64,000 bases of DNA from Octopus vulgaris (Eukaryota). Below the pieces are notes generated by a model, which was not told the origin of the DNA, did no database searches, and saw only the letters and a list, made by a program, of their open reading frames with translations. Numbering within the stretch: the first letter of the stretch is position 1; each line of letters begins with the position of its first letter. Below, piece after piece: positions 1,502 through 64,000 of the stretch. The position numbers and the translations under genes were made by a program. The stretch spans positions 21,018,001-21,082,000 of the forward strand of contig OX597838.1 of NCBI GenBank assembly GCA_951406725.2, given 5' to 3'.

Positions 1502-2080
1502 GTAAGAAGCAATGTTTTCAATTGTCTTTTTCTTTAGGCAACAATTAAAGGCATTTTCCCCACCATTTGCAATATCTGTGAAGAAGTACAACCCATTTTG
1601 TGTTTTAATTAATTTCGAAAATAATTAACTAATTGAATAATTTTGAAAATAATTGAGAAATGTTTTGCTCCAGTTTCAATACCATTGTGTAGCACTTTAG
1701 ACAGGTGTTTCTGCTGTGACCTCAGGTTGACTGATTGACCAGTTGAGTGGAATACAGCGGATGGAAACTGGGAAAAAGGCGGCGAGCTGGCAGAAACGTT
1801 ATTTCATCTGCCGCTATGTTCTGAGTTCAAATTCCACCGAGGTCGACTTTGCCTTTCATCTTTTCGGGGTCAATTAAATAAGTACTAGTTATGCACTGGG
1901 GTCGATATAATCGACTTAATCAATTTGTCTGTCCTTGTTTGTTCCCTCTGTGAGCAGTAAAGAAATAGGAAACTGTGAAAAAGTCTGTTGTGTGTATGTG
2001 TTTACCATTTTACCTCTCTTGTATAGTTTTATCATTTCACTATCTTATGTACTTTTTTTCCCCTTTTCACTCTTTTACAG

Positions 2081-2245
2081 GAGTTTTGGTGTCCATATGT
2101 CAAAAGTGCGGTCGATAATGCTGGATGCCTGGGAACCAGAACTGTTGAAGGTCATGGCAGAACTTGGTAATGACGTTGTCAACAGGACCTATGAGAGCAC
2201 CGTAGATGAATCCATTGCACCACATGCAACTCCTGACTGCACCAG
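2081..2245 (+). CDS. ACAP2: ACAP exon: ArfGAP domain middle
   Basis: ttttacag|g...ag|gtaag. Reads SFGVHMSKVRSIMLDAWEPELLKVMAELGNDVVNRTYESTVDESIAPHATPDCT. Phase 2-2 fits neighbours. Confidence 0.96.
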
Positions 2246-3422
2246 GTAAGTGCAACATGCACCAAACCATATCCTCTACATTGTGCTATGCTACAATCAA
2301 ACATGCGCCATATAGTGAGGGACACTACATCCATCCATACATGGAGGTAGACCACACCAATACATGTGTCTTTTTCTGCTACACTGCAGAAAATGTAAGA
2401 GGTGATGCTGAAAAAAGTTCCTGGTTTTAAGGGTGTCCTGAAAGGCCTGGTTGGAGGCCTAACTTTCTGAGTTCTTTTACAGAGCTTAGATGCAACAGTG
2501 GATGTGTGAGGAATATGGTAGTTACTCTTATACACATGATAACAGCTGTTGATGCAACAGTTCTTGTGATGACGGTTGCTATGTAAATGCTGACATGAAT
2601 GTTGGTGTATTTACTGCTAATGAGAGAACTCTTAGTAGCATCCTTGATACGACTTTAATCTACATTTGGTGGCGGGATCCTAGTTCAGCAGTTCTAGGAT
2701 TTTGAGCAACATAAAATAATCTCTTATCCACTATTGTCCCCAGGTCTTTTCTGACTCAGAGTAGTAGCATTTATCAGAATCCCAACTGGGGGCTAATTAA
2801 CATGTGACCACCCGAGCTAGGGTACCTTTAAATAATGGGATGGAACATGGTGGATGTGAACTATTTCGGCAAATGAATCTTCCCAAATGAATGGCAAATG
2901 TCACCAGATGCAGAGCAGATGAACAGACAACCAACTATCAGTGGTTAGGATCAACCAGTTCAGATAAAGACCTACTGCTATCATCTGTAGTTGCGGCATG
3001 TGCAAATAAGATATTTCAGCCAGAGAAAGACCAATGTGACTAAAAGCCAGGCCAGGTGTTCATGTTGCATTACTTGATTGAGACATCTGGTATGGAAGAG
3101 TTACATTGGTCTGGGCATGTCACCTGACCAGATGGTGATATGATCTGTTGCGTATTTGTGTATTTCCTCATGTAGGAGATGCCGCATCAAGTTGTCAGGT
3201 CACCAATCAGCTGATGTGCTGATTATTGACCCGACAATTTAATGTGGCAACTACTACATGAGAATGTAAAACTTGATGTGGTTTGTACACGACACCTTAG
3301 CTAGTACAAATGTTGCTGTTAATGTAACAGAGATGAAACAGCATTTGAGACTGTTACATGAGAATGTGACAAGATTGTGACAGGGAATGATACAAATTCT
3401 TTCACATTTCATTTTCGTACAG

Positions 3423-3637
3423 GAGTATCCGAGAGGCATGGATACGATCTAAATATATCCAGAAAGCCTTTGTTAGCAAATTACCTGGTTTCAAAGACAA
3501 CAGCAGTGAAAAGATCCAAAGCTGGAGTGTACGGAAGCGGACGAAAAGATCTCCTGGTCGATCTCTCATCAAAGATGATAACTTGTCAACTACTCAGCCA
3601 TCAGAGAAACTGGAAAATTCTAGTGACTTAATGAAAG
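3423..3637 (+). CDS. ACAP2: ACAP exon: ArfGAP C-end plus linker
   Basis: ttttcgtacag|...aaag|gtatgt. Reads SIREAWIRSKYIQKAFVSKLPGFKDNSSEKIQSWSVRKRTKRSPGRS..., matching the RE-WIR-KY ArfGAP end motif. Phase 2-1. Confidence 0.93.
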
Positions 3638-3731
3638 GTATGTAATTTTAGATGTTTCTGTATTTTTGTCTGGTGTGTGTGTATGTGGGTCTGATTTTCT
3701 TTCTAGACGTGTGTGTATGTATGTATGTATG

Positions 3732-3768
<37 letters not shown>

Positions 3769-6700
3769 AGTGAGAGAGAGAAAAGAAAAGGAATGGAGCT
3801 ACAATTAACAATTAGAAGTTGATCATTGGTACTAAATGGTCATAGCTTAACTGCAGTTAAAATAATATTTACAGCTGTTTTGGTTTGTTATTTTTGAGGT
3901 AAATTTTTATTTATCTTGTTCCATGTAACAAACATTGTCAGAATGACTCAGAGTTTATTGGAGGAATATACACAGGAGAGAAAGGGAAAAGAAAATGGAA
4001 AAAAGTTGAGGTCCCTCAGTCATGCTTGCCAGCCATGCCATTAGCCTCAGTTTCTGGTTCTGGTTAGTTATTGATCTGAAGGCAGTGGCTGGCCAGCAAC
4101 AGGGGTACGAAACAGAAGCTGCACCTCATAAATTATGTGTACGTTCCACGTCCTTTAAACGTTAATGCATGTCTAAGAGAAGCTGTTGGTAGAAATATTT
4201 GGAACTCCATGACATGCTAGTGCCAATTTCTTTCATTTGTACATGTATCTGTGTGTGTGTGAGAGAGAGAGAAAAGATGCATGTAGGAAAGTAGTACTCA
4301 ATACAGCTGGAGTTTAACCCCTTGGTTATAGGGATCAATAAAATATGTACTGGGGACAAAAACGATCAACTGGTAAGCAAGCTATGTGGTAAGTAGCTTG
4401 CTTACCAACCACATAGTTCCAGGTTCAGTCCCACTGTATGGCACCTTGGGCAAGTGTCTTCTACTATAGCCTCGGGCCGACCAAATCCTAGTGAGTGGAT
4501 ATGGTAGACAGAAACTGAAAGAAACATGTCGTGTGTGCGTCTGTGTTTGTCCCCTTGTCCCATCATCGCTTGACAACCGATGTTGGTATATTTACGTCCC
4601 CGTAACTTAGCGGTTCAGCAAAAGAGACCGATAGAATAAGTACGAGGCTTACAAAGAATAAGTCCTGGAGTTGATTTGTTTGACTAAAGGCGGTGCTCCA
4701 GCATGGCTGCAGTCAAACAACTCAAACAAAGAAAAGAATACCATTCAGAGATGTACCTCAGCTTGGATGAAATCTATAAAGGAATGTGTGTACATGTATG
4801 TGTGTGAGTGGAAAAAAATATGGATTCTTGTTCTTTTAACAATTTAATTACCATTAAGTTTGACAGAATGTTTGTTATTATTATTATTATTGTTACTACC
4901 ATGCTGGGCAAAATGCTTAGTGGTATTTCTTCTGGTTTTACATTCTGGGTTCAAATCCCATAAAGGTTGACTTAGCTTTTCGTCCTTTCAGGGTCAATGA
5001 ATTAAATACCATCTAAGCAGTGGGCAAAGTCAATGTAATTAACTACCCCAACTCCATCCTCTCCCCCCCCCCCACCAAAAAAAAAATGTCAAGCCTTGCG
5101 ACTGTTGTAGAAAGAATTACTACTACAGATTGTAAAGGTAGCAAACTGGCAAAGTCGTAAAAGTTCCCTGTGATATTTCTTTCCTGTGCCCTTTGAATTT
5201 AAATACCCACCCTCTGAGGCCAAATTTGCTCGTTGTATCTTCCAGGATTGAATTGTAATCAACAAGTCCCCTTCTCTCAAATTTGCGGCCATGTGCCTAT
5301 GTTGAAAATGATTTATTAAAGATTGCAATTTGCATGATTTTATTATCACTTTAAAACGCTGCCATTTCCTGCATGCCGAAAGAGCAAGGGCAGCAAAAAT
5401 CCTGCTACATCCACAACAGCAACCATTGCATTGCATGTTCTGCAAAATGAACTCAGTCACCTTTGCTATGGTTCTAATTTTGAGCATTTGTTTTATAAAA
5501 TTTTATTAATTAATTTATTTATTTGTTATTGATTTTTTTTCTAATCAACTCAGTTTCCACGATAGCTTTTCCTTTCTACTCTTAATTTGCAGAATTAATT
5601 TATTTAATAATCCAAGTTAAAGGGTTTCTGTTATGTTTGTTATGCGACCTTGTTCTGTTCTAGCATGGGTTCTATGAACTGATAAAAGCAGGTGGCAAAC
5701 CCAGCAGTTGTAACTTTTCCATTGTAAAATAGGGGTTCTACCTTGTTTACAGCTAGAGCTGACTGAGGCATCTTACTCAGAGGATGATGTGGATATAGTA
5801 CCATAATATGGGAGATCTAATCCACTAGCTAGCATAACACCATTGTTATTGCTATTGCCAAAGCCTTGTGTGTAGATTTGGTAGATGGAAATTGAAAGAA
5901 GCCCATCACATGTGTGTGTGTCTTTGTGTTTGTGTCCGTTTCCCCATCACTTGACAACTAGTGGTGGTTTGTTTACACCCCTTTAACCTAGTGGTTTGGC
6001 AAAAGATACTGATAAAATGAGAAGAGAAGAGAAGAATCCACCTTTGTCATGAATGTTCATGGGATTGCTCCTAGAAAGTTATTCTCCGAGGCACAAGTCC
6101 AGGCAAGGTTATTTATGGAAGACCAGCCATCACCCATGCATACCAGCCTTCCCTCTCCATGCTATCAATGTTATCCAAGGGAAAGGCAAAGGCTGATACA
6201 GCTTGGCACCTGTGATGTTGCTGCTTATTTCTGCAGTTGAGTGACCTGATGCAACGTGAAATAGAATTCCTTGCTCAAGAACACAACACACAGCCTGGTC
6301 TGGAATCAAACTCACTACCTCATAATTGTGAGCCCAGTGCTCTAACCATTCAGCCATGCACCTTCACGCATGGCTGAATGGTTAAGTACCTGACTTTAAA
6401 CAAAGATATAATAAGTCCTGGGGTCAATTTGTTCAGCTAAAGTGATTAGCAAATAAACAAGGACAAGGTTGAGCCGAGAGACCTTTTAGTCTTGTTGAAA
6501 ATGTGAGAATCTCTTGGATGCTGACCCCAACACATTCTGTAAAGTGTTTGGTGAGAGGAAGAACACGTAGTTGTTGAAGTCGAGTCAAAGTTTAAGTGTC
6601 TGAGTGAGATGTGATCCTTTCACCCAACTAGGAACGTAGACTTGACAGCAGCTAAGAGACAACATGTACTTCAAATTAATGATTCAAAGAATTATGGGAT

Positions 6701-22254: not shown

Positions 22255-22304
22255 GATGCTGAAACAATTGCTATCGAAGCCACCAATGCCGACATAGTCA
22301 CACT
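22255..22304 (+). CDS. ACAP2: ACAP exon: last ankyrin helix
   Basis: ttttacag|gat...ct|gtacgt. Reads DAETIAIEATNADIVTL (ACAP NADIVTLLR motif). Confidence 0.92.
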
Positions 22305-22466
22305 GTACGTATAAAAGCCTCAAATTAGATTTTAACATTTTTAAAATTGTTTTTGTTGTTTTTTTGCTATGATTGAACTGTTCTCGTTATTGCAATGCAT
22401 CGTCTTTTGATCTTGGGCAATTTACTTCACTTTGCTTTCACACTGGTTGTGATAAAAGACTGTTAA

Positions 22467-22699
22467 CCCTTTTGTTACCAACCCGGCTGAAACCGTCTCT
22501 GGCTCTGTAGCATAAAACAAGCTCTGTAGTCTTGTTTTCATAAGTTCTGAATTAAAATCTTCCACCAAACCTTAGTCACAATTTAGGTTCCTAACACAAG
22601 CTTAATAATAACTAAGTTATTTTACTAAATTCTTTGTTATTTTTAAAATCAATTAACTGAAACACAGAGCATCACAAAATAAATACGGTTGCAAAAGGG
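22467..22699. mobile_element. piggyBac-type MITE
   Basis: TTAA|CCCTTTTG...CAAAAGGG|TTAA. Confidence 0.8.
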
Positions 22700-23124
22700 T
22701 TAACTAATTTCTTCAGACTCATTTAGTTCTTCTGAATTACCATATTTGAACATGTATATGGAATCCCATAATTTTGGGGCTTAAAATTTGGAAAATCGGT
22801 TTTGTAAGGGATTATAATACTGTCCATGTATAAGAAACTCCCATATTTTTTTAACCTAATTTTTGACAAAAAAGGGTTCCTTATACACGTTAGAATATGG
22901 TAATTAGGGCTAAAACTGATTTTTTGATGGAACTCTTGAAGGGTTTGTCTTTAGGTACAGGCATGGCTATGTGGTAAGAAGCTTGCTTACCAACCACATG
23001 ATTTTGAGTTCAGTCCCACAGCATAGCACCTTGGGCAAGTGTTTTCTACTAGTGCATCGGGCTGACCAAAACCTTTTGAGTGAGTGGATTTAGTAGATGA
23101 AAGCTGAAAGAAGCCTGTCGTATA

Positions 23125-23300
23125 TATTGGATTGGTGCATAATTATTGCGGCTTTTTTTCAACAAATCTTGTTCAACAAAAGCAATAAGAATATTTAACA
23201 AAAACATCTTTAAATGACGGTCTGACCATCTGCCAAGCAAATGGGAAGCAGTAATTAAAGTAGAAGGTGAATATGCTCCGGAATAATAATTTAAAGATGT
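23125..23300. mobile_element. Short mariner-derived fragment inside a SINE's TA tract
   Basis: tattggattggtgcataattattgcg TIR-like start and a LPSKWEAVIKVEGEY-like mariner C-terminus. Confidence 0.55.
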
Positions 23301-24112
23301 TTTTTGTTACGTGACTGTAAGGCAGGATATGATATGCTGCCTTTTGGAAACTACATTATCCATTATAACTTTTTTTCTTTTTGTCGCATGATGTGTTTCG
23401 AGGGAGATGTGGTTGCTATTTCGAGTATATGAAACGACCACGTAGCGGTCACCTCATTGACTACAATTTTTTCCACTTGTGGTCTTTTTTTTCTTTTTCC
23501 TTATCTGAATCATTGACTGCACGATTAGCAGTCCCAAACCTGGCTGGATAAGGGAGATAACTCTCATGTAAAGACGCATACATTGTGTGTAATTTTTTAA
23601 AAATCACACGCAGACGCGCATGTACATATGTGCATGCCTAGATATATTTATATATATACACATACACACACAGATATATACATAGACAAACATGGGCACA
23701 CACGTATATACATGTAACCATGCACACGCACACACAAATATATAGAGAGATAGAAATATTTATGGAAGGGCAGTATAATGTAAATTATTTGATTAAACAA
23801 TTAAATCAACCATAACTTTTTTTAAAAAAGCAACAACTGAAAATAAAAGCTACAGACATCATAAATACTGTCTGTAAAAGCAAAAGCCTTTGTTTAAATG
23901 GACCTCTTATTATTCTTCTGTGCGCACTGAACAAACTACTACGGCCTTGATTTACTTAACAGTCCACACTTCAGTATGTTCCATAATTTACTATACTGGA
24001 TCACCATTCACATACTTCTCTATGCAGGTTTCTCTTGGTTTACTGTGTTTGTGTCTGCAAATTTTTTTTTTTCGTGTCTGTGTGTATACATACATGTGAG
24101 AGTATAGCTGTA

Positions 24113-24146
<34 letters not shown>

Positions 24147-24516
24147 ATGTCTGTATATATTTATATATGTGTGTTTGTGTGTATGTATATATTTATATGT
24201 GTGTGTGTGTGTGTGTATGTATGTATTTATATATATATGTGTGTGTGTGTGTCTGTATATATTTATATATATTTAGGTAAGCTGAGTTAGCGGTTGGTAT
24301 AACTGTCTAAGGGATAAGAATGTCCGTTCTTACTACCAGTACAAAATGTTATGTAATGTTATGTTTTGTATTGTTTGTTTGTTTGTTGATCTAAAGTTCT
24401 TACCATTTTCTGCTTTTATATATATATATATATATAAAATTAATAAAAAATAAAAAAGAGATCTCAGAAAGAAGCATACCCTAAAAAATAGTGCAGTAGT
24501 TATTACAAGAAAATTT

Positions 24517-24586
24517 TATATAGAGTTACTGAAGGTTTCGCACCAACAAAGCCAAAGCCTTGTAGATAGCTCGTCAGATTCTATAT
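24517..24586 (-). ncRNA. Type I hammerhead ribozyme motif (Penelope-like element type), intact core
   Basis: Minus strand: AUAUAGAAU-CUGACGA-[stem II GCUAUCUACAAGGC...GCUUUGUUGGUGC]-GAAA-C-CUUCA-GUA-ACUCUAUAU. Stem I has 8/9 pairs; stem III is minimal. Confidence 0.75.
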
Positions 24587-24748
24587 GTTTACAAAATTAA
24601 AAATATCTGTCACAGACGTGAGGAAACATTCGGAACTCGAGGAATACGAAAATATGTATTCATTAATGGGTTTTGTTTTTTTTTGTATTCCTCGAGTTCT
24701 GAGTGTTTCCTCACATCTGTGATGTAGATATTTAAAACTTTTGCATTC

Positions 24749-24817
24749 ATATAGAGTCTGACGAGCTGTCCACAAGGTTTTAGGTTTGTGGGTGCAAAAT
24801 GTTGGGTAACTCTATAT
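24749..24817 (+). ncRNA. Hammerhead ribozyme motif, second (inverted) copy with decayed core
   Basis: AUAUAGAGU-CUGACGA-[stem II]-AAAA-UGUUGG-GUA-ACUCUAUAU. Perfect 9-bp stem I, but GAAAC has become AAAAU. Confidence 0.65.
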
Positions 24818-24994
24818 AAAATTTTGTTGTAATCATATACTTACATACACACACACCACACACACATACATAATTTGTGTACTTTGTTGTTTATTCATGT
24901 TTTCCTGTTTGCTTATACTTTGGTATGTAGATATATTGTTGCCGTATATGAATATTCGAGGGATAAATATTGTGTGTGCAGACACACACACACA

Positions 24995-25740
24995 CGAGGG
25001 TCATCTGAAATGTTCATAGGCTGACCAAGATATTCGCATGGAATGTAACCAAATGAGGTTTATTTTCCAACATAGCCCCCACCCCTTGCAGTCCACACAC
25101 TTCTTCCATTGGAGTTGCAGTGCTCCAATTCTCTTGGTGAAGAAGCCTTCAACCTGTCACTCAAAAATTTAATTAACAGATGTGACATCATCATCATTGC
25201 AATACTCGTTTCCAGTAAAGTGTATTTCTTTTCATGTTGCAGAACTGATTATAGTCAAATCAAGAGAATAGAGATGGTGATCAACCTGTTCAAAGCCCCA
25301 ATCACACTCGGGAGCCATCGAAACAAAAGACTTGTGTGCTGGAGCATTGTCCTGACGAAACAAGACCCCTTTCGTCAGTTTTCCTGGGTGTTTGGTCCTG
25401 ATTGCTTTTTGTAACTGCCTCAGCAAATTGGTATAGTACTCCCCATTGATGGTGTGGCCCTTTTGAAGATAGTCAATAGACACAGTGCTTTTTGCATCCC
25501 AAAAAACAAGCCGTCACCTTCCCTGCAGATGAAACAACCTGTGGCCTTCTTTGGAGCAGGTGAAGCAGGGTGCTTCCACTACATGGACTGTCTCTTTGTC
25601 TCTGGCTCAAAGTGATGAAGCCAATACTCATTCTGGGTTTGGACCCATTCAAGGTAACCAGCTGGATCTGCCTCAAATAATGTCAGATTTTCCCCATTAC
25701 GTGGTCAACCAGATCAGCCAGGACCAATCTTATTCCTAGT
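24995..25740 (-). mobile_element. Mariner transposon remnant
   Basis: IDYLQKGHTINGEYYTNLL...QDNAPAHKS...YSLDL (YSPDL-like) peptides with frameshifts. A cgagggtc.. terminus lies near 24995. Confidence 0.85.
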
Positions 25741-25938
25741 AGAATCTATGTGGGTTACTTACTTCTAAACTTAGATATCCACATGATTTCTATAAGCCCC
25801 TAAATACACTTCTGATAAACTTCCCTGTTACTAAGAGGCAAACCTTCTCTCGAATCGTCATTATCATCATCGTTGTCATTGTTGTCGTTGTTGGTGAAGT
25901 TGTTATTGTTTCGATAATATTTTGTTTTTAAATTTCAG

Positions 25939-25979
25939 ATTGAGATTAGCCCGATTGAACGAAGAAATGAGTACGGACG
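25939..25979 (+). CDS. ACAP2: ACAP small exon (41 nt)
   Basis: aatttcag|a...g|gtatgt. Reads LRLARLNEEMSTD, continuing NADIVTL-LRLA. Phase 2-1. Confidence 0.9.
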
Positions 25980-30055: not shown

Positions 30056-30135
30056 GTGATGAAATGTACAATGATGTGTTCCGAGACTTCAGTAACATGG
30101 CCTCACACAATCCAGAAAAGTTGAAACGGAAATAG
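30056..30135 (+). CDS. ACAP2: ACAP terminal coding exon
   Basis: ctctttgcag|gt. Reads GDEMYNDVFRDFSNMASHNPEKLKRK*, closely resembling the ACAP2/3 C-terminal GDETYQDIFRDFSQMASNNPEKL motif. Confidence 0.95.
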
Positions 30136-33934: not shown

Positions 33935-33974
<40 letters not shown>

Positions 33975-33989
33975 CACCTTTGTACAGAT

Positions 33990-34135
33990 TGGTTTGTGAC
34001 CAGAATGGACCATTTAATTTCGTACCTAATGTTTGGGAATGAAATTAAATGGTCCCTTCTTGCCACAGTCAAACCCTTCAGAGGTGATAGGGAGGTTTGT
34101 AAGCTCTGCCTATGTGAGGGTTTGGAAATTCCTTT
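33990..34135 (+). mobile_element. Penelope-like element remnant (C-terminal GIY-YIG region) with local inverted duplication
   Basis: EIKWSLLATVKPFRGDREVCKLCLCE resembles the PLE WSIL...PY...CxLCLxE motif. 15-bp inverted repeat ggaccatttaatttc / gaaattaaatggtcc. Confidence 0.55.
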
Positions 34136-42912: not shown

Positions 42913-45424
42913 GTTGCATCATCAATCACTTAACTGTATGTGTAATTTTCTCTCCACTGGAGTGAACAAACAAATGCAATTTTAGTCTGAATTTTGTGTC
43001 TCTAGTCTCAACATTCTGTGACATAGCAGAGGCAGTAATATTATTGGTACACATGGAAGGTAAATTCCTCTAACACACACACACACACACACACACTATA
43101 GATTCTTTATTTTATTATTTTATTTTGGTAAAAATATTAAAAAAAAATCCATGGTGGTGGATTAAATCATTTCTCTCAATTTCCAAATCTGAGCAAATTT
43201 TGGTAATCTGTACATTTTTTTTTTTTTACTTTGGAATCCTAACAAATGTCACTAAATTAGAGTTGCTTGTCCCCTTTTCCCCTAAATACCACCATCTTAG
43301 TCATCAAAATATTGTGAGGGATTTTAATAAGATTATGTTGGCTGCTGTTAATATCTGCAAGTTGATGGGAAGTCACATATGCATTAATTATTATTATTAT
43401 CATCACTCATTAACCTAAAAAAAATTTTTTTTTTTTTTTTTGAAAAACTAGCCAACTGTGAAATCTAATAATCTGTCTCAAACTTTCACAATTCAAGGAC
43501 ATTTTCTGGGAAGAATTTTGTAGGTGGAAACTTTTGTTTTTGAATTCCCACCTTGCAGAGTAGAATGGCATTAACTAAAATGTTACTTCTGACCAATCTT
43601 TAAGAAAAAAAATATTAAAAAGAAAAAAAAAGTTCCATTTTTAAAAAAAAATTTTTTTTTCTTTTAAATGGGACCTTCATTTCAGCTCATCTAATAGAAT
43701 TTTATTTTCTGGGAGAAAAAAAAAGAAAATATTTTTCAGCAAAACATTCAAACAGCTTTCATTATTATCTCATCTGCTTATAGTCATTATTGTTCTTTTT
43801 AGTAAGACACAAATATCAAACCCCTTGCTTATTCCATTATAAATACAAGGGGAAAACTGACTAGCATAATGTGTTTTCTACCTCAAATCTCCCTTACTGA
43901 CTTCTACACTCTTGTTCCCTTTCATAAAAAAAAAAAAATGATACCCAGGTCACAAGAGTCTTGACCCCTTCTCTCTCTCTCTCATTTGCTGCTAAATATA
44001 TATATTTTTCGTCAACAATGACAGTTTTATTCATTTGCATTGTTCTTTTTTTTTTTAAAGCAAACTGAAGCAAGAAAATCTGTAGGAAATATTAAAAAAA
44101 AATGTTCTTGGAACAATGTCTTGGATAATGAAACCCCCTTCTTTTTTTTTTTGTTTGGAAAGATGAGTTGCAATATTAGTGTGGGTTTGTTTGGAACAAA
44201 GTCTGTTGCTATCCTATTTGAAGAATTTTTTGTACGATATATGTATAATATATTTATATATATATATATATCTCATAGAAATAATTCTAGCCCACGTCTA
44301 TTTGCTGGTCACATCTAAAGAAGTTTGTATATATAAAAATTTTAATTGAAAGTTATATAAAAAAAAAATATCAAAAGTGAATAAAGTAATTTGACTGTAT
44401 TACAGGTGTTCTTTGTTTTTTACCTTTGATTTACTGCATTTTTGTTTTTTATCATGTTAACCCATATATACCCCTGGTTTGAGTTTTTGCAATGCAAAAC
44501 CTGCTCTTAGTTGTTTGGACATGAACTAGCTAGGAAACATCTGACAGAGCATATGAAATGTTCAGTAGATACCCGTAGCTAACAGTTGCATACTGTCCTT
44601 CTCTTCCAGATTATGAAAGCTTACTATAATGTTTAATCTAAACACAGTGAAATTTTAAGACTTCATTTTTAATGGTTTAAAAAATGATATTTTTTTTTTT
44701 TTATAAAATCGCTTTGAAAAATAGAGAGCTGGCAGGCAGGAAACTACATGTAAGTTTTGTATTCTGTAAACCTTTCCATGACTATATTACAATTAATTTT
44801 TTAAAATAACCAAGAATTTGGGGAGAGATTTTGTTACATAAATAACTTTAATCATTATAAAATTTATATTTGGAACATAACTTGATAAAAAAAAAAAAAA
44901 TGTTTTTTACTAAAAGAATAGAAGTTTAAATGTAGATATGAACATTTTAAAATGGAGAGTTTTGTATGCTAGAACCAGAGGCATTCTCAGATGGGTTGCA
45001 AACCAGATATTGAAAGACACTGGACTGTAAGTAAAAGGTTATTGAAATCATATTACTGTTTTGAAAAAATTCTATTCCTTATGCAGCAAGAAACGGTGAT
45101 ATCCCCATTAACACTTTTTTTTTGTTTTTACAAATTTTCACATTTTCTTAATTTTTTTCACGTATTTCATAAAATAGCTGTTTTACAGAGTAAGTATCAA
45201 ATACATTTAGTATTGAACATGAAAACCATACTTACAGGATATGCTGAAAAAAGTATTGCTGGCACAGGAGTGGCTGTGTGGTAAGTAGCTTGCTTACCAA
45301 CCACATGGTTCCAGGTTCAGTCCCACTGCGTGGCACCTTGGGTATGTGTCTTCTACTATAGCCTCGGGCCGACCAAAGCCTTGTGAGTGGATTTGGTAGA
45401 CGGAAACTGAAAGAAGCCTGTCGT

Positions 45425-49600
<4,176 letters not shown>

Positions 49601-51185
49601 TCCTTAAATCCTTAAAAATGTTTTAGCCCGAAGGCCGCGGCCATGCTGGGGCACCACCGCTGAATGAGCTACACTAGTTTGTGAATCCACCTCTGATACA
49701 TGGCACTTGATCTACAAGGGAGTTCGATGCTGCTGCCCGCATCCGTGTCTCCTGTCGTGAGGTAGGTTCATCTGGGACTCCCAACAAGAAGAGATCCAGT
49801 TTAGTTTTAAAGAAACCCACATCCACACCATGTAAGTCTCTTAGGCATTTAGGGAGGATGTTAAAGAGCTGTGGTCCTCTGAAACCCAAGCTGTTGCAGT
49901 ATCTGGACCTGTATTTTGATGGTGATGTTGGAATCCTTGGCACCACGCAGCGGCGCCCCGTTCTGCGGTTGGAGTAACTTTGAATGCCAAAGTTTGGGAC
50001 AAGACCCTCCAGGATTTTCCAGATGTATATCACTGCATATCTCTCCCGCCTCCGCTCCAGGGAGAAGAGGTTTAATACCTTCAGTCTTTCCCAGTAGCTG
50101 ACATTTTGCATTGAGACGATTTTCTTTGTGTAGCTTCTCTGAGTTGCTTCGAGTTCTGCTGTTTGTTTTATATTGTGTGGTGACCAAAGTTGGGAGCAGT
50201 AGTCCAAGCGGCTGAGGACAAATGTTTTCCATAGGACCATCAGTGTCTCCTTCTCTCTTGTTCTGAAAGTTCGGAGAATCCATCCAGCTAGCCGTCTGCA
50301 TTTTATCACCAGATTAGCAATATGCATTTGGAAAGATGCATCATTGCTCATGTCAATGCCCAGGTCACGCACTGATTTTGACTCAGGGATTGCAATTCTT
50401 CCTGGGCCAGTGTATCCAGTCTTCACGTCATTTACCTTTGTGTGCCAGTAGCGCAGGGCCTGGAACTTACCTGCATTAAACTGCATGTTGTTGTCCTCAG
50501 CCCACCTGTATATTGTGTCCAGCTCATGTTGCAGATGCGCAATATTTTCAGGGTTTTGTATTGCGTGGGAGACTTTTGTGTCATCTGCATAGCTAGCAAG
50601 GGTGGTCATCGTAGCAACTGAAGGCATGTCTGAAAGGGCCACTATGAACATCAGTGGCCCCAAGACAGTGCCCTGTGGGACACCGCTTGTTATTTGCGTT
50701 TCCCTGGAGGTGGCTCCATTGCTCACAACTGCCTGTTTTCTGTCTTTTAGGAAGTTGTGCAGCCACTCTCCAAGTTTCCCGCCTATGCCGAGACCACGCA
50801 GTTTGTGACAGATCATACCATGGTCGACTTTATCAAAGGCTTTTGCAAAGTCAAGATATATTACATCCACATTTGAGCCATTTAGTAGCTGTTTCAACAC
50901 CCAGTCATAGTGTTGCAGGAGCTGTGTTAGGCAGCCTCTACCTGGTCGAAATCCATGCTGGGTGTCAGACAGTAAGTCATTTTCTTCAAGGAACATGATT
51001 AGTTTCTTACGGACTATTCGTTCCATGACTTTGCTGATGTGTGAGGTCAGAGAGATAGGCCTATAATTTTTAGCATCTGCTCTGCTACCTCCCTTATGGA
51101 TAGGGCATATTACCCCCTCTTTCAGTTTGACTGGGAGCTTACCACTTGCAAGAAAGCTCTGAAAAAGAAGCTGTAGCGGTTTTGC
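49601..51185 (-). mobile_element. 5'-truncated CR1-clade LINE with uninterrupted reverse transcriptase frame
   Basis: Motifs NYRPISLTS, QHGFRPGRGC, YLDFAKAFDKVDH, GVPQGTVLGP and YADDTK. Stop at 49674. Short 3' UTR with stem-loop and (tttaagga) tail. The 5' end abuts microsatellite. Confidence 0.95.
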
Positions 51186-51262
51186 ATATGTATATGTATG
51201 TATGTATGTATGTATATATGTATGTATGTATGTATATATATATGTATGTATATATGTATGTA

Positions 51263-51295
<33 letters not shown>

Positions 51296-51370
51296 ATATG
51301 TATGTATGTATATATATATATATGTATGTGTATATATGTGTGTATATATATGTGTGTATATATATGTGTG

Positions 51371-51403
<33 letters not shown>

Positions 51404-51762
51404 GTATGTTTATATATGTATGTGTATATATATGTAATTGTATATATATGTATGTGTATATATATGTATATATATATATGTGTATATAGATGTATGTATG
51501 TGTGTGTGTATGTATGTGTATATATGTATGTATATATGTATGTGTATATGTGTGTATGTATATGTATATGTGTGTGTATGTATATATGTATGTATATAGA
51601 TATGTATGTATGTATGTGTATGTATGTATGCATGTATGTGTAATATGTATATGTATGTATATGTGTGTATATGTATGTGTGTATATGTATATGTATGTGT
51701 ATATATATGTATATATATATGCATGTATATGTGTGTATATATATATGTGTATGTATGTATAT

Positions 51763-51872
51763 GTCACGTGACCGACCAGTCCATCAGATGTAGTTACACA
51801 TCGCTGGTCACAATGCCTTTGCATTGTTTTAGCCTTCGAATGACGCCACCCCGCTGGCTAAGCGAGCAGGCC
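51763..51872 (-). other. ~110-bp structured repeat (copy 2, best-paired)
   Basis: Minus-strand helices cctgct/agcggg, ttagcc/ggctaa, acaatgc/gcattgt and gaccag/ctggtc, plus terminal palindrome gtcacgtgac. Confidence 0.85.
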
Positions 51873-53021
51873 ATGTATGTATGTGTATGTATATGTATGT
51901 ATGTATATGTGTATATATGTATGTATGTGTATGTATGTATATGTATGTATATGTATGTATATATATGTGTGTGTGTGTATGTATATATATGTGTGTATGT
52001 ATATATATGTGTGTATGTATATATATATGTATGTGTATGTATGTATATATATATATACACACATATATGTATGTATACTGCTTCTGTGCAGGGATAGGTA
52101 TGTATATATATATATATACACATATATATATACACATATATATATATACACACATATATATACGTATGTGTGTGTGTATATGTTTGTATGTCTGTGTTTG
52201 TCCCCCGTTTGGGCAAGTGTGTGGATTTGGTAGAGGGGAACTGAAAGAAGTGTTTACGTCCCAGTAACTTAGCGGTTTGGCAAGAGACTGATAAATTAAA
52301 TACTAGGCTTACAAAGAATAAGTCCTGAGGTCGATTTGGTCGACTAAAGGTGGTGCTCCAGCATGGTCAGAGTCAAATGACTGAAACAAGTAAAAGAGAA
52401 TGAAAATGGAAATAGTTTAGAGCTGATTTCTATGCCTCTGCTGGCAAGAAAAGGATTCTAAGTGAAGGGTATTTAGTTTGATGCTTGTGTTGCTACATGG
52501 TAGCGAAAACATGGGGCATTAACTGTAAAGAATGTACAAAGGATGGAAAAATATGAAGCAAGAATGCATGTTCTGCCGGATGTGTAATGTTGGTGTACAC
52601 AAACAATGGCATAAATGAAGGGAAAGAAAATAGGGCGCAAGACGAATTATTAGCTGTAGTGTATGAAAGAGATCTTTTTGATATGGACATGTGATGATAG
52701 TAAAGAAGTGACTAGTGATCCAGATAGGAGGAACTTGTGGAAGAGAAAGACGTGGGATAAAGTAGTGAAAGTTCATCTCAGGAGGCTTAACCTCACGAAG
52801 GAGATAACAAAGGATCACAAGCAGTGATGAGGTTTTGTACTGGAAACAACCCCTCAGTGTCAGATGTAAAAATGATCCAATGATTAACCTCCAAGATTCG
52901 TCTTATATTCATCAGTGTTGAGAAACACAAAAGGGTCCTTTTTTTTTTTTTCAAATGTTGTAAACCAGAGGTTCAGATAAATCAACAATTTAAAAAGAAG
53001 AAACTACCAAAATGAAGCTCA

Positions 53022-57440: not shown

Positions 57441-57695
57441 TTAAACCATATCCTTCTATCTTTCTGTTTCATATCACTTTGCTACAATACCGGGAAACCA
57501 CTGGATACCTAAGTGATGTATATAATAGTAATGATATGGTGCAGGCAGGGCGGCAGTTGAGTATTAACTGAATAGAAGTCTGATAGTGACTATAAGGCCT
57601 TGAAGGGATGTGGTACAGACATATTTCTGACCACAGATCTGCTGGAATAAAGTATGATCAACAGTTAAATTACAATAAGTGCAACAACTTCTTAC

Positions 57696-58138
57696 CTGTG
57701 ATTCATTAGTCATTACTTCATAATCTTGTTTACCTCCATTAGTCATCTCTTCACATTGTTGTTTACCTCCGTCAGTCATCACCTCATAGTCTTGTTTACC
57801 TCCGTTAGTCATCTCTTCACATTGTTGTTCACCTCCATTAGTCATCACCTCATATTCTTGTTTACCTCCATTAGTCATCGCTTCATATCGTTGTTTATCT
57901 TCGTTAGCCATCTCTTCACGTTGTTGTTCACTTTCATTAGCCATCACCTCATAATCTTGTTTATCTATGTTAGTCGTCTCTTGTTGTTTACCTCTGTCAG
58001 CCATCACCTCATATCGTTGTTTAACTTGAACGCTTTTAACGACAGGACTGCGTGGTGGTTGTGGTAACTTTTCCAACTCCATCTCATCATAGGTCCAACT
58101 CGATTCGCTTCCGCAAATAAATGATTCGTAATTGTCAT
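57696..58138 (-). CDS. Cytoplasmic exon with 11-aa tandem repeats rich in YxxM
   Basis: ttcgacag|at...cag|gtaag. Reads DDNYESFICGSESSWTYDEMELEKLPQPPRSP... followed by about 10 units like KQDYEVMTNGG. 443 nt open, phase 1-0. Confidence 0.87.
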
Positions 58139-60256
58139 CTGTCGAATTACAGAAATAAACAAACACAAGTTAAGTACTGCACTATATCAGATGTAGTCAA
58201 AAAAGCATCAGGCCTTTGGCCAAAAAACAAGTAATATTAAAAAAACTCACCATTTTGATTTAGTCTGGTTCAAAGTATTCACCTTGGGAGTCCACACACT
58301 TCTTATTTATTTCTTTATTGCCCACAAGGGGCTAAACAAGGACAGACAAAGGGATTAAGTTGATTACATTGATCTCAATGCATAACTGGTACTTAATTTA
58401 ACTGCCTTGCCAAAGAACAAGTTGTAACTATGCAGCAGTTTATTATATACGGAGTATATATAGTGAGTGGAGGCGCAATGGCCCAGTGGTTAGGGCAGTG
58501 GACTCGCGGTCATAGGCTCACGGTTTCGATTCCCAGACCGGGCGTTGTGAGTGTTTATTGAGCGAAAACACCTAAAAAAGCTCCACGACACTCCGGCAGG
58601 GGATGGTGGTGATCCCTGCTGTACTCTTTCACCACAACTTTCTCTCACTCTTACTTCCTGTTTCTGTTGTACCTGTATTTCAAAGAGCCGGCCTTGTCAC
58701 TACGCTAAGGGTACACGTGTCTGTGGAGTGCTCAGCCACTTGCACGTTAATATCACGAGCAAGCTGTTCCGTTGATCGTATCAGCCGGGACCCTCATCGT
58801 CGCAACCGACGGAGTGATCCTATACTATATATAGTGAATCTTTCAATGCTATGGCTCAGTGGTTAAAGTATTGAGCTTACGATCATGAGGTTGTGAGTTT
58901 GATTCCTAGACTGGGCTGTGTGTTGTGTTCTTGAGCAAGACTCTTTATTTCATGTTGCTCCAGTTCCCTCAGCTGTCGAAATGAGTTGCATCATCACTGG
59001 TGCCAAGCTGTATCGGCCCCTTTGCTTTCTCTTGGATAACATCATCGGTGTGGCGAGGGGAAGCTGGTACGCATGGACAACTGCTGGTCTTCCATAAAAA
59101 CAACCCTCGGTTGTGCATTCGTCAATGAGGCAACTTTCTGTCCAGACTTGTACCCCGGAGGAGAACCTCTTCGGTGAACCTATGGTCATTCGTGACCGAT
59201 GGAATCGAGTTAGTATACTCTTTTACTCTTTTACTTGTTTCAGTCATTTGACTGCGGCCATGCTGGAGCACTGCCTTTATATATATTTCATCGACTCCGG
59301 GACTTATTCTTTGTAAGCCCAGTACTTATTCTATCGGTCTCTTTTGCCGAACCGCTAAGTGACGGGGACGTAAACACACCAGCATTGGTTGTCAAGCAAT
59401 GCTAGGGGGACAACCACAGACACACAAACACATATATATATATACATATATACGACAGGCTTCTTTCAGTTTCCGTCTACCAAATCCACTCACAAGGCAT
59501 TGGTCGGCCCGGGGCTATAGCAGAAGACACTTGCCCAAGATGCCACGCAGTGGGACTGAACCCGGAATATGTATTGTTATATATATTTCATCGTTTACTT
59601 GTTTAGTCTTTTGACTGCGGTCATGGTGGGGCCTTGGAGGATTTTAGTCAAATGAAGCGATCCCAGGACTCATTTTTTACTTAAAGCTGGTACTTATTCT
59701 ATCAGTCTCTTTTGCTGAACTGCTAAACTATAGGGACATAAACACACCAATACCAGTTGTCAAGTAGTGGTAGGGGAGAGACACAAGCAAAAACACACAC
59801 ACACACACACACAGAGCAAGCTTCTTTCAGTTTCTGCCCACTAAATCCACTCACAAGGATTTGGTTGGCTTGAGGCTATAGTAAAAGACACCAGCCCAAG
59901 GTACCATGCAGTGGGACTGAACCTGGAACCATGACATTGGGAAGCAAACTTTTTTATCACTTTATAGTGTTTTGTTATGTGTGTGATACCCTGGTCTGTG
60001 AAAAACAACTGCCTTGCTCAAAACTGGTCCATGGGGCAAAAAAAGGTCGGGGCCCTGCTGCTATACACCACCACAACCACACTAACATCACAATCATCAT
60101 CATCATCAATGGCATCATTGCAGCCCCCCACCCCATCCTCTGGCTATAATCCGACATTCAACCTTTGACATGATCCAGTTTACCTGCCATTATGATCTTA
60201 ACATCAAGCAATTTAGTAGTTGTAATGAACGGAAACTCTAACACTGTGCTACATAC

Positions 60257-62126: not shown

Positions 62127-63059
62127 CTGGAGAAGAAGAAAAAAAAAAGATACAGAAAGACATACATCATCATCATTACTGAAAGCCTGTGTCCCACACC
62201 GGCATGGGTTAGATGAGTTGACAAAGTTTGATGGGTTCAGTGTCTGCTTTAGAATGGTTTCTACAGCTGGATGCCCTTCCTAATACCAACCACTTCAAAG
62301 TGTGTACTGGGTGCTTTTTATTGTGCAGCCAGCTCTGTTCAGGTCATCATGGCAGAGCTCACATGCATGGGTGACTACTGGATTTTCATAAACCACCTTG
62401 CCAGGACTTGTGTCTCAGAGGGTAACTTTCTAGGTGCAATCCCAAGGTCATTTATGACCAAAGGGGGTCTTTACCCTATGTACATATAATGGTGTGGAAA
62501 AAGGAGGTTGGTAATGCATGGGTGACTACTGGATTTTCATAAACAACCTTGCCAGGACTTGTGTCTCAGAGGGCAACCTTCTAGGTGCAATCCCATGGTC
62601 AGCCGTTCAAGAATTTGGACCTGGAGATCTCCATTTCCAGTAACTTCGAGGGCCACCCCCCAGTGGTCTCGGGCGTCAATGAAGAGCCCTTGACTACAAT
62701 AAAACGACCAAAGTTTCTTTTTTTTTCCAAGGTCTGGGGTCTCCCGCCCCTAAGCCCTAGACCATCACCTAATCACCCTTACCCGTCCTGTTGCTTAACA
62801 ACAACAACAATCTCATGGTCATTTATAACCAAAGGGGGTCTTTACCCTTTTACCCTGGGGAGGCTAGTATGTATGGGCAACTACTGGTCTTCAATAAACA
62901 ACCTCGCCCAGACTTGGGTCTCGGAGGGGAACTTTCTAAGTGCAATCCCATAGCCATTCATGACCGAAGGGGGCCTTTACATTTGACAGAATAATCTGAA
63001 TGCTAAAAAATTAAACAGTGAAAAGATATTAAGGAAATGAAAAAATGTTAAGTCCTTAC

Positions 63060-63203
63060 TAGGTTTCTCTTCTTGGCAGTTATCTCCTCGGTAACCATGT
63101 TCACATCCATTTTCACAGGTTCCATTCTTATAATCACAGACTACACCATCGAGACAATGGCACTTCAGGGAACACTGGGAACCAAATTTTCCATCTGGAC
63201 ATT
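63060..63203 (-). CDS. EGF-like (laminin/MEGF-type) domain exon of a single-pass receptor
   Basis: ttcttatacag|aa...a|gtaagg. Reads ECPDGKFGSQCSLKCHCLDGVVCDYKNGTCENGCEHGYRGDNCQEEKP with 8-Cys MEGF10/Draper/SCARF-type spacing. Phase 1-1. Confidence 0.9.
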
Positions 63204-64000
63204 CTGTATAAGAAACAACAATTCTTTGGAGTGAAACAACCGTTGGATATTATCTTTTTTTTTAATAGTTTTTACTAGTTTTAGTCATATGGCAGTGCCC
63301 ATGCTGGGGCATCGCCTTGAAATTTTAGTTGAATGTATTGACCCCCAGAACTTATTTTTTACTTTTAAAGCCTGGTACTTACTCTATTGGTCTCTTTTGC
63401 TGAACCACTAAGTTAAAGGGATGTAAACACACCAGTACCAGTTGTCAGGCAACGGTTGGGGACAAACAAAGACACACTACCAAATCCATTCACAAGGCTT
63501 TGATCAACCTGGAGCTATAGTAGAAGACACTTGCCCAAGGTGCCACACAGTGAGACTGAACCCAGAACCATGTGGTTGGGAAGCAAACTTCTTACCACAC
63601 AGCTGTGTTGTGGAAGAATCAACCATATGTTATTGTAAGAATCTGCTAGCAGTGAGTTGGACTGTACTGCACAACTACAGTACCTACACACATCAAGGTG
63701 GACTGTGCCATCCACTTGCTTTCACAGGTAGTAAGGATGTTTCACCTACCTATAGTACATATCTGCTAGTAGATAAATTATACCATGTGCTGATCCACAG
63801 CCGCTCACACATCAAGGTGAACTGCCTTTTCCCCAGTCACAGTTAGTTATCCTAGTGTGCCTAGGATATACCACCACACTAATGATATGACAGAATAGTG
63901 TCATCTAGCAAGGATATCATACAGCAATGACATCTACTGAAAATATAACACAGTCATGATATCTAGGTCTACTGAGGAAAATATATAGTTCATAGATGAG

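Follow-up and report, generated by a model that had tools for sequence, protein, structure and literature searches.

The window analyzed in this study, a stretch of 64,000 nucleotides of Octopus vulgaris, carries part of an ACAP gene on its + strand. This gene was recognized by Pfam matches to ArfGap and Ank and by its best PDB match, ACAP2 (E 9e-12); additionally, BAR_3 exons are located ~133 kb upstream on the same strand. The host intron is predicted to span positions 22305-25938. An earlier sequence-only reading had placed a hairpin with two hammerhead ribozymes inside an ACAP intron, and this position was confirmed. The same intron holds a mariner-type transposase fragment (PF01359) at 24996-25600 (-) and a small inverted repeat at 22735-22905, the 32-nt arms of which are 84% complementary.

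Further features were found elsewhere in the window. A LINE reverse transcriptase ORF (RVT_1, E 7e-30) at 49677-51140 (-) is embedded in a 7-kb TG/TA microsatellite array from about 45200 to 52300. Likely exons of a minus-strand gene were located at 57567-58169 (-) and 62980-63249 (-), one with short tandem peptide repeats and one with a weak match to an EGF-like domain (PF24887).

The feature under study is a long inverted repeat with a hammerhead layout in each arm, as had been described before, and its components are listed in Table 1. The outer and inner blocks of the repeat match at 24502-24596/24739-24833 (83%) and 24597-24652/24680-24735 (84%). The two arms are near-equal with about 165 nt each, and 133 of 158 aligned positions are identical. 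The resulting divergence of 16% consists of ordinary mismatches. For the whole inverted repeat a hairpin of -190 kcal/mol (z -23.5) was predicted, in line with the proposal that the unit would fold into a long dsRNA.

Table 1. Features of the inverted repeat and of the neighboring ACAP exons, given as positions of the window
Feature	Position	Strand	Basis or remark
ACAP ankyrin-region exon, upstream of host intron (predicted)	22255..22304	+	
(TA)n microsatellite, left insertion edge (target site remnant)	24417..24436	.	sequence; Hydra-clade (TA)n insertion; family ends
~60-nt PLE 'tail' extension, left arm only	24437..24501	-	aligned with the tail of another copy
Left arm: 5'-truncated 3' end (pLTR) of Hydra-clade PLE, antisense to ACAP	24502..24672	-	
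Type I hammerhead, core intact, three helix pairs broken	24518..24586	-	C3 at 24577; predicted cleavage after 24527
Head-to-head junction: 8-bp palindrome common to both arms and short T-rich insertion	24653..24679	.	
Right arm: 5'-truncated 3' end of the same Hydra-clade PLE family, sense to ACAP, no tail	24657..24833	+	
Type I hammerhead, G12>A (24796), C15.2>U (24800), C15.3>G (24801), stem I perfect	24749..24817	+	
Degenerate TA/CA microsatellite, right insertion edge	24834..24870	.	sequence
ACAP exon, downstream of host intron (predicted)	25939..25979	+	in phase with last exon 30056-30135

Both edges of the insertion are microsatellites, and a target-site duplication was unreadable here for this reason. 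The left limit given previously missed the tail of a Penelope-like element (PLE), with which the arm reaches ~24437, about 60 nt further. Only the left arm carries this tail (score 73 versus 20 for the right arm).

The hammerhead of the family has a stem I of 9 bp and a stem III of 3 bp with a 3-nt loop. A core of CUGANGA, GAAA and UH together with three helices and an open stem I was found in the family majority sequence, the consensus on which the sequence-only reading had made its proposal depend, as well as in the left arm; the right arm fails at G12. All core bases of the - copy are kept as proposed, but this copy is not pristine, since the stem I pair adjoining the core, one pair in stem II and the third pair of stem III are broken. 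In the + copy, stem I is perfect as described. Both of its core-region changes had been attributed to CpG positions, which holds for G12>A, the sole CpG decay among the three changes, but not for the second change. The latter affects two adjacent stem III positions (24800 and 24801) and does not represent CpG decay, as CC is the family sequence at these positions and CG occurs in 1 of 188 copies.

Scanning with hammerhead models, as suggested earlier, gave a divided result. Up to E 10, none of the Rfam hammerhead families was matched, and the scans gave only miRNA models of the hairpin type that stayed below their cut-offs, whereas a strict hammerhead descriptor matched the - copy as its sole hit in the 64 kb window, compared with 1 match in 40 Markov-shuffled windows. 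Type I hammerheads located in the pLTR, with a long stem II and a short, near-palindromic stem III, are described for metazoan PLEs (Cervera and de la Pena 2014, PMC4209133), and opposite-strand dual hammerheads 100-700 bp apart are reported in the same source. In comparison with the minimal motifs presented there, stems I and III of the predicted hammerhead are longer here.

The arm belongs to a dispersed repeat family, for which 382 candidates were found in the 2.8 Gb genome and at least 221 arms were collected, the sample favoring the best-matching copies. Longer copies run upstream into the C-terminus of a GIY-YIG endonuclease (EN); the nearest named ESM Atlas cluster of this EN piece is GIY-YIG, while a Pfam scan of the piece gave no match. 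A full-length but decayed copy was present in L241 (G000:C2:15862449-15872429, ~2024-5065). It is composed of pLTR, ORF and pLTR with ~2.8 kb plus an inserted repeat. Here, two same-strand arms 3041 bp apart flank a broken ORF that contains reverse transcriptase (RT) motifs and the EN. The RT and the C-terminal GIY-YIG domain of one ORF between direct pLTRs correspond to an EN+ PLE, of which the window holds 3' ends alone. Further features of EN+ PLEs, namely 5' truncation, an inverted head-to-head copy and a one-sided tail, were all observed.

The Hydra clade of PLEs is defined by RWK, DKT, CxCX5C, CxxC/CxH and (TA)n insertion (Craig et al. 2021, PMC8557442). The L241 copy carries RWK and DKT (RT N-terminal region), YRDD, the CxCX5C linker, CxxC and CxH. 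Inspection of the translations by eye revealed the Hydra-type arrangement of CxCX5C, CxxC and CxH around conserved E and N, with no CCHH inside GIY-YIG. Insertion at (TA)n was seen directly at the window edges, and AT/CA repeats follow 91 of 125 tail-less family ends. The earlier reading, a relic of a PLE whose inverted terminal repeats contain hammerheads, was correct, and the L241 motifs and the upstream EN allow the assignment to be refined to a family of the Hydra clade.

A Hydra-1_Obim element of Octopus bimaculoides with a hammerhead is entered in the supplement of the same paper. Besides the motifs of the clade, (TA)n insertion and the type I hammerhead, it shares with L241 two RT stretches in which 46/57 and 39/54 residues are alike by eye. 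However, stem I and stem II of its hammerhead differ in sequence from the octopus family although the fold is alike, and in several family copies the two halves of the GIY-YIG motif are separated by ~100 additional residues of low complexity where Hydra-1_Obim has a short insert. Two motifs of the octopus family were absent from the supplement passages covered, and its hammerhead and 3' sequence were not those of Hydra-1_Obim in this comparison. Judged from these sequences, the octopus family is a Hydra-clade sister family of Hydra-1_Obim rather than Hydra-1_Obim itself because the ribozyme stems differ.

A genome-wide search with the EN fragment gave 17,002 first-look candidates, and the 150 matches that were scored reach down to ~42% identity. 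This suggests many Hydra-like PLE families in the genome. Within the window, a fragment resembling a GIY-YIG C-terminus was located beside a (TA)n run at 33970-34130 (+) and would represent another Hydra-like PLE; no Pfam match and no hammerhead were detected for this fragment.

The arrangement in the window is the usual double insertion of the family, since 45 of 53 close arm pairs were head-to-head. Their arms are truncated at variable positions, and 33 of the 45 pairs meet with an overlap or within 10 nt. The 3' tail was present on exactly one arm in 41/45 pairs and on both arms in none (0/45), versus 9.3 expected (P 3e-5). Previous work has described pLTRs in inverted arrangement, with palindromes at the junction and a tail at one end only (Arkhipova et al. 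2013, PMC3846280). Furthermore, a PLE of the anole cut both DNA strands in vitro and extended them from two sites of RT initiation, one on either side of the tail (Frangieh et al. 2024, PMC11167929). The octopus pairs resemble the inverted pLTRs of both reports in the head-to-head arrangement, the junction palindromes and the position of the tail at one end. The tail is longer here, ~60 nt compared with 30-40.

The two near-equal arms of the window would also fit a MITE-like or retrozyme-type non-autonomous element with terminal inverted repeats of its own. However, arm lengths are free between pairs and range from ~30 to 2800 nt, and in other copies the arms extend into the PLE ORF. Non-LTR retrozymes, as presented in a preprint (bioRxiv 10.64898/2026.07.22.740005), share with our feature a PLE-related type I hammerhead and a short non-coding unit, but they consist of tandemly repeated units in direct orientation, 150-300 nt in length and each containing a hammerhead, whereas the window contains inverted truncated ends of an autonomous family. 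Such tandem arrays were not found among the 53 close pairs: only 3 pairs ran in the same direction, all >3 kb apart or fragmentary. The alternative of a retrozyme relic, which had been left beside the PLE in the sequence-only reading, is therefore unsupported. The MITE-like or retrozyme-type reading is largely refuted already, and we assign it practically no probability.

The tail rule suggests that each arm starts at a different RT initiation site within one event. By analogy with the published inverted pLTRs and dual-strand cases, we infer a twin-priming origin of the window pair. The RT/GIY-YIG protein of the element would have cut both strands at a (TA)n site, two cDNAs would have been primed from two start sites separated by the tail, and the truncated cDNAs would have been joined at a short palindrome. 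Each arm would carry a hammerhead because the hammerhead sits in the pLTR. Since the antisense arm is transcribed first on either strand, the RNA is predicted to fold as a hairpin of ~160 bp that buries the ribozyme. One old insertion event likely laid down the pair, which has likely decayed neutrally since.

The sequence-only reading had pointed out that, of the two copies, the one that could cleave the host pre-mRNA has been disabled. This describes the locus correctly, with a broken sense core and an intact antisense core, but evidence for selection was not obtained: core CpGs decay at background level and intact sense copies exist. Among the full copies of the family the catalytic core was kept in 50 of 189, and the core together with the helices in 13. 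G12>A itself was found in 46 of 183 copies. Counted directly over the family, G>A changes at the two core CpGs (105/407) were not in excess of those at eight other CpGs (278/1050; p=0.84). In 13 of 32 pairs with both ribozymes complete exactly one core was intact, and the pattern 'sense broken, antisense intact' would arise by chance with a probability of ~0.19. G12>A of the sense copy is therefore likely ordinary CpG decay, for which selection is not needed. Non-CpG variation was lower in the core (0.079) than outside (0.14); this comparison was set aside as confounded by subfamily variants.

Intronic copies were compared after 10 kb around 140 of 171 loci had been taken, exons predicted and 253 of them scanned with Pfam. 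This resulted in 14 full arms from 13 hosts with assigned strand. Five of these arms (L172, L255, L279, L215 and L260) are counted on predicted exons without a library match, and PDB searches with the exons of L172 and L279 gave no match. The comparison excludes L217 and L246, in which the junction cuts the ribozyme, the partial copies L163, L165, L211 and the sense arm of L147, and four loci with uncertain host or intronic position (L214, L216, L224 and L234). Ten loci, nine with a strictly intact arm and L224, were extended by 7 kb on each side, and no clear host gene was seen by eye. T/A skew as a proxy of the gene strand was dropped, as it conflicted with several Pfam-assigned hosts.

The core was kept in 2/7 sense and 2/7 antisense arms, so that the bias across intronic copies expected by the earlier reading was not observed. 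The sense copies with intact core are L277, located between consecutive aldehyde dehydrogenase exons, and L172. If strict intactness of core and helices is required, the numbers are 0/7 sense versus 2/7 antisense, which is non-significant in this small test of 7 versus 7 (p ~0.46, calculated by hand). These strict numbers lean towards the selection idea without reaching significance, and a weak effect on fully competent copies would be compatible with them. A near-perfect ribozyme with one change was observed in L234 (G000:C14:51963863). It shares the strand of a C2H2 zinc-finger ORF whose stop codon is located 3.7 kb upstream, and this copy could lie in a 3' UTR.

The idea that selection disabled the sense-strand ribozyme because the ACAP pre-mRNA would be cut draws on the window pattern and on the strictly intact copies, and a preprint reports that Xenopus retrozymes are depleted from introns. 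It is opposed by the chance probability, the CpG counts and the sense copies that retain their core. Furthermore, in its window context the long hairpin is predicted to be more stable than the hammerhead fold by 70 kcal/mol on the + strand and by 62 on the - strand, so that even an intact sense ribozyme would be trapped in it. In addition, metazoan PLE hammerheads are described as cleaving weakly or only as dimers in vitro, and no reads ending at the cleavage site were found for the anole PLE (PMC11167929). Altogether, we regard such selection as very unlikely. A literature search at record level found no published account of a sense/antisense bias in intronic PLE hammerheads. In a broader scenario, octopus introns would be cleared of fully competent PLE hammerheads on the sense strand, and head-to-head pairs would escape this because their upstream antisense arm silences the ribozyme co-transcriptionally; the one-tail rule would then be genomic evidence of one twin-primed event with two start sites. 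This we consider improbable, if slightly less so.

A long hairpin of this kind is a plausible ADAR substrate, and it could be kept in the ACAP intron as functional dsRNA, either for editing or as a splicing modulator. The very stable predicted duplex would be consistent with this. Sequencing runs were covered as contigs only, mostly in small shares. The insertion is probably shared with a second labeled organism because a contig under that label spans the left arm and the junction. However, the arms differ by ordinary mismatches at a level like that of the family, in which copies differ from the majority sequence by a median of 12%. One contig of 84 nt, derived from a putative RNA run, is identical to the right arm, which is weak evidence since contigs drop rare variants. 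Moreover, incidental editing would not show function. We therefore consider a retained dsRNA function highly improbable, more so than selection against the ribozyme. No published account of PLE hairpin editing in cephalopods was found in a literature search at record level.

Taken together, the feature with high probability consists of two 5'-truncated 3' ends of a Hydra-clade PLE, joined head-to-head in an ACAP intron, likely derived from one old insertion and likely subject to neutral decay. The window hairpin is likely an ordinary transposon relic because the damage of the sense copy matches the family-wide decay. With it, one further octopus family of the Hydra clade joins the published one. 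The inverted pLTR insertion type was known already, and the present analysis adds counts for known PLE features; the proportion of pairs with one tail and the lack of pairs with two constrain how inverted PLE insertions are formed. Furthermore, the family represents a usable test set, in which one ribozyme is present in either orientation in a few hundred old copies. This set could decide whether RNA is cut by PLE hammerheads in vivo, a question left open in the cited papers as far as covered here.
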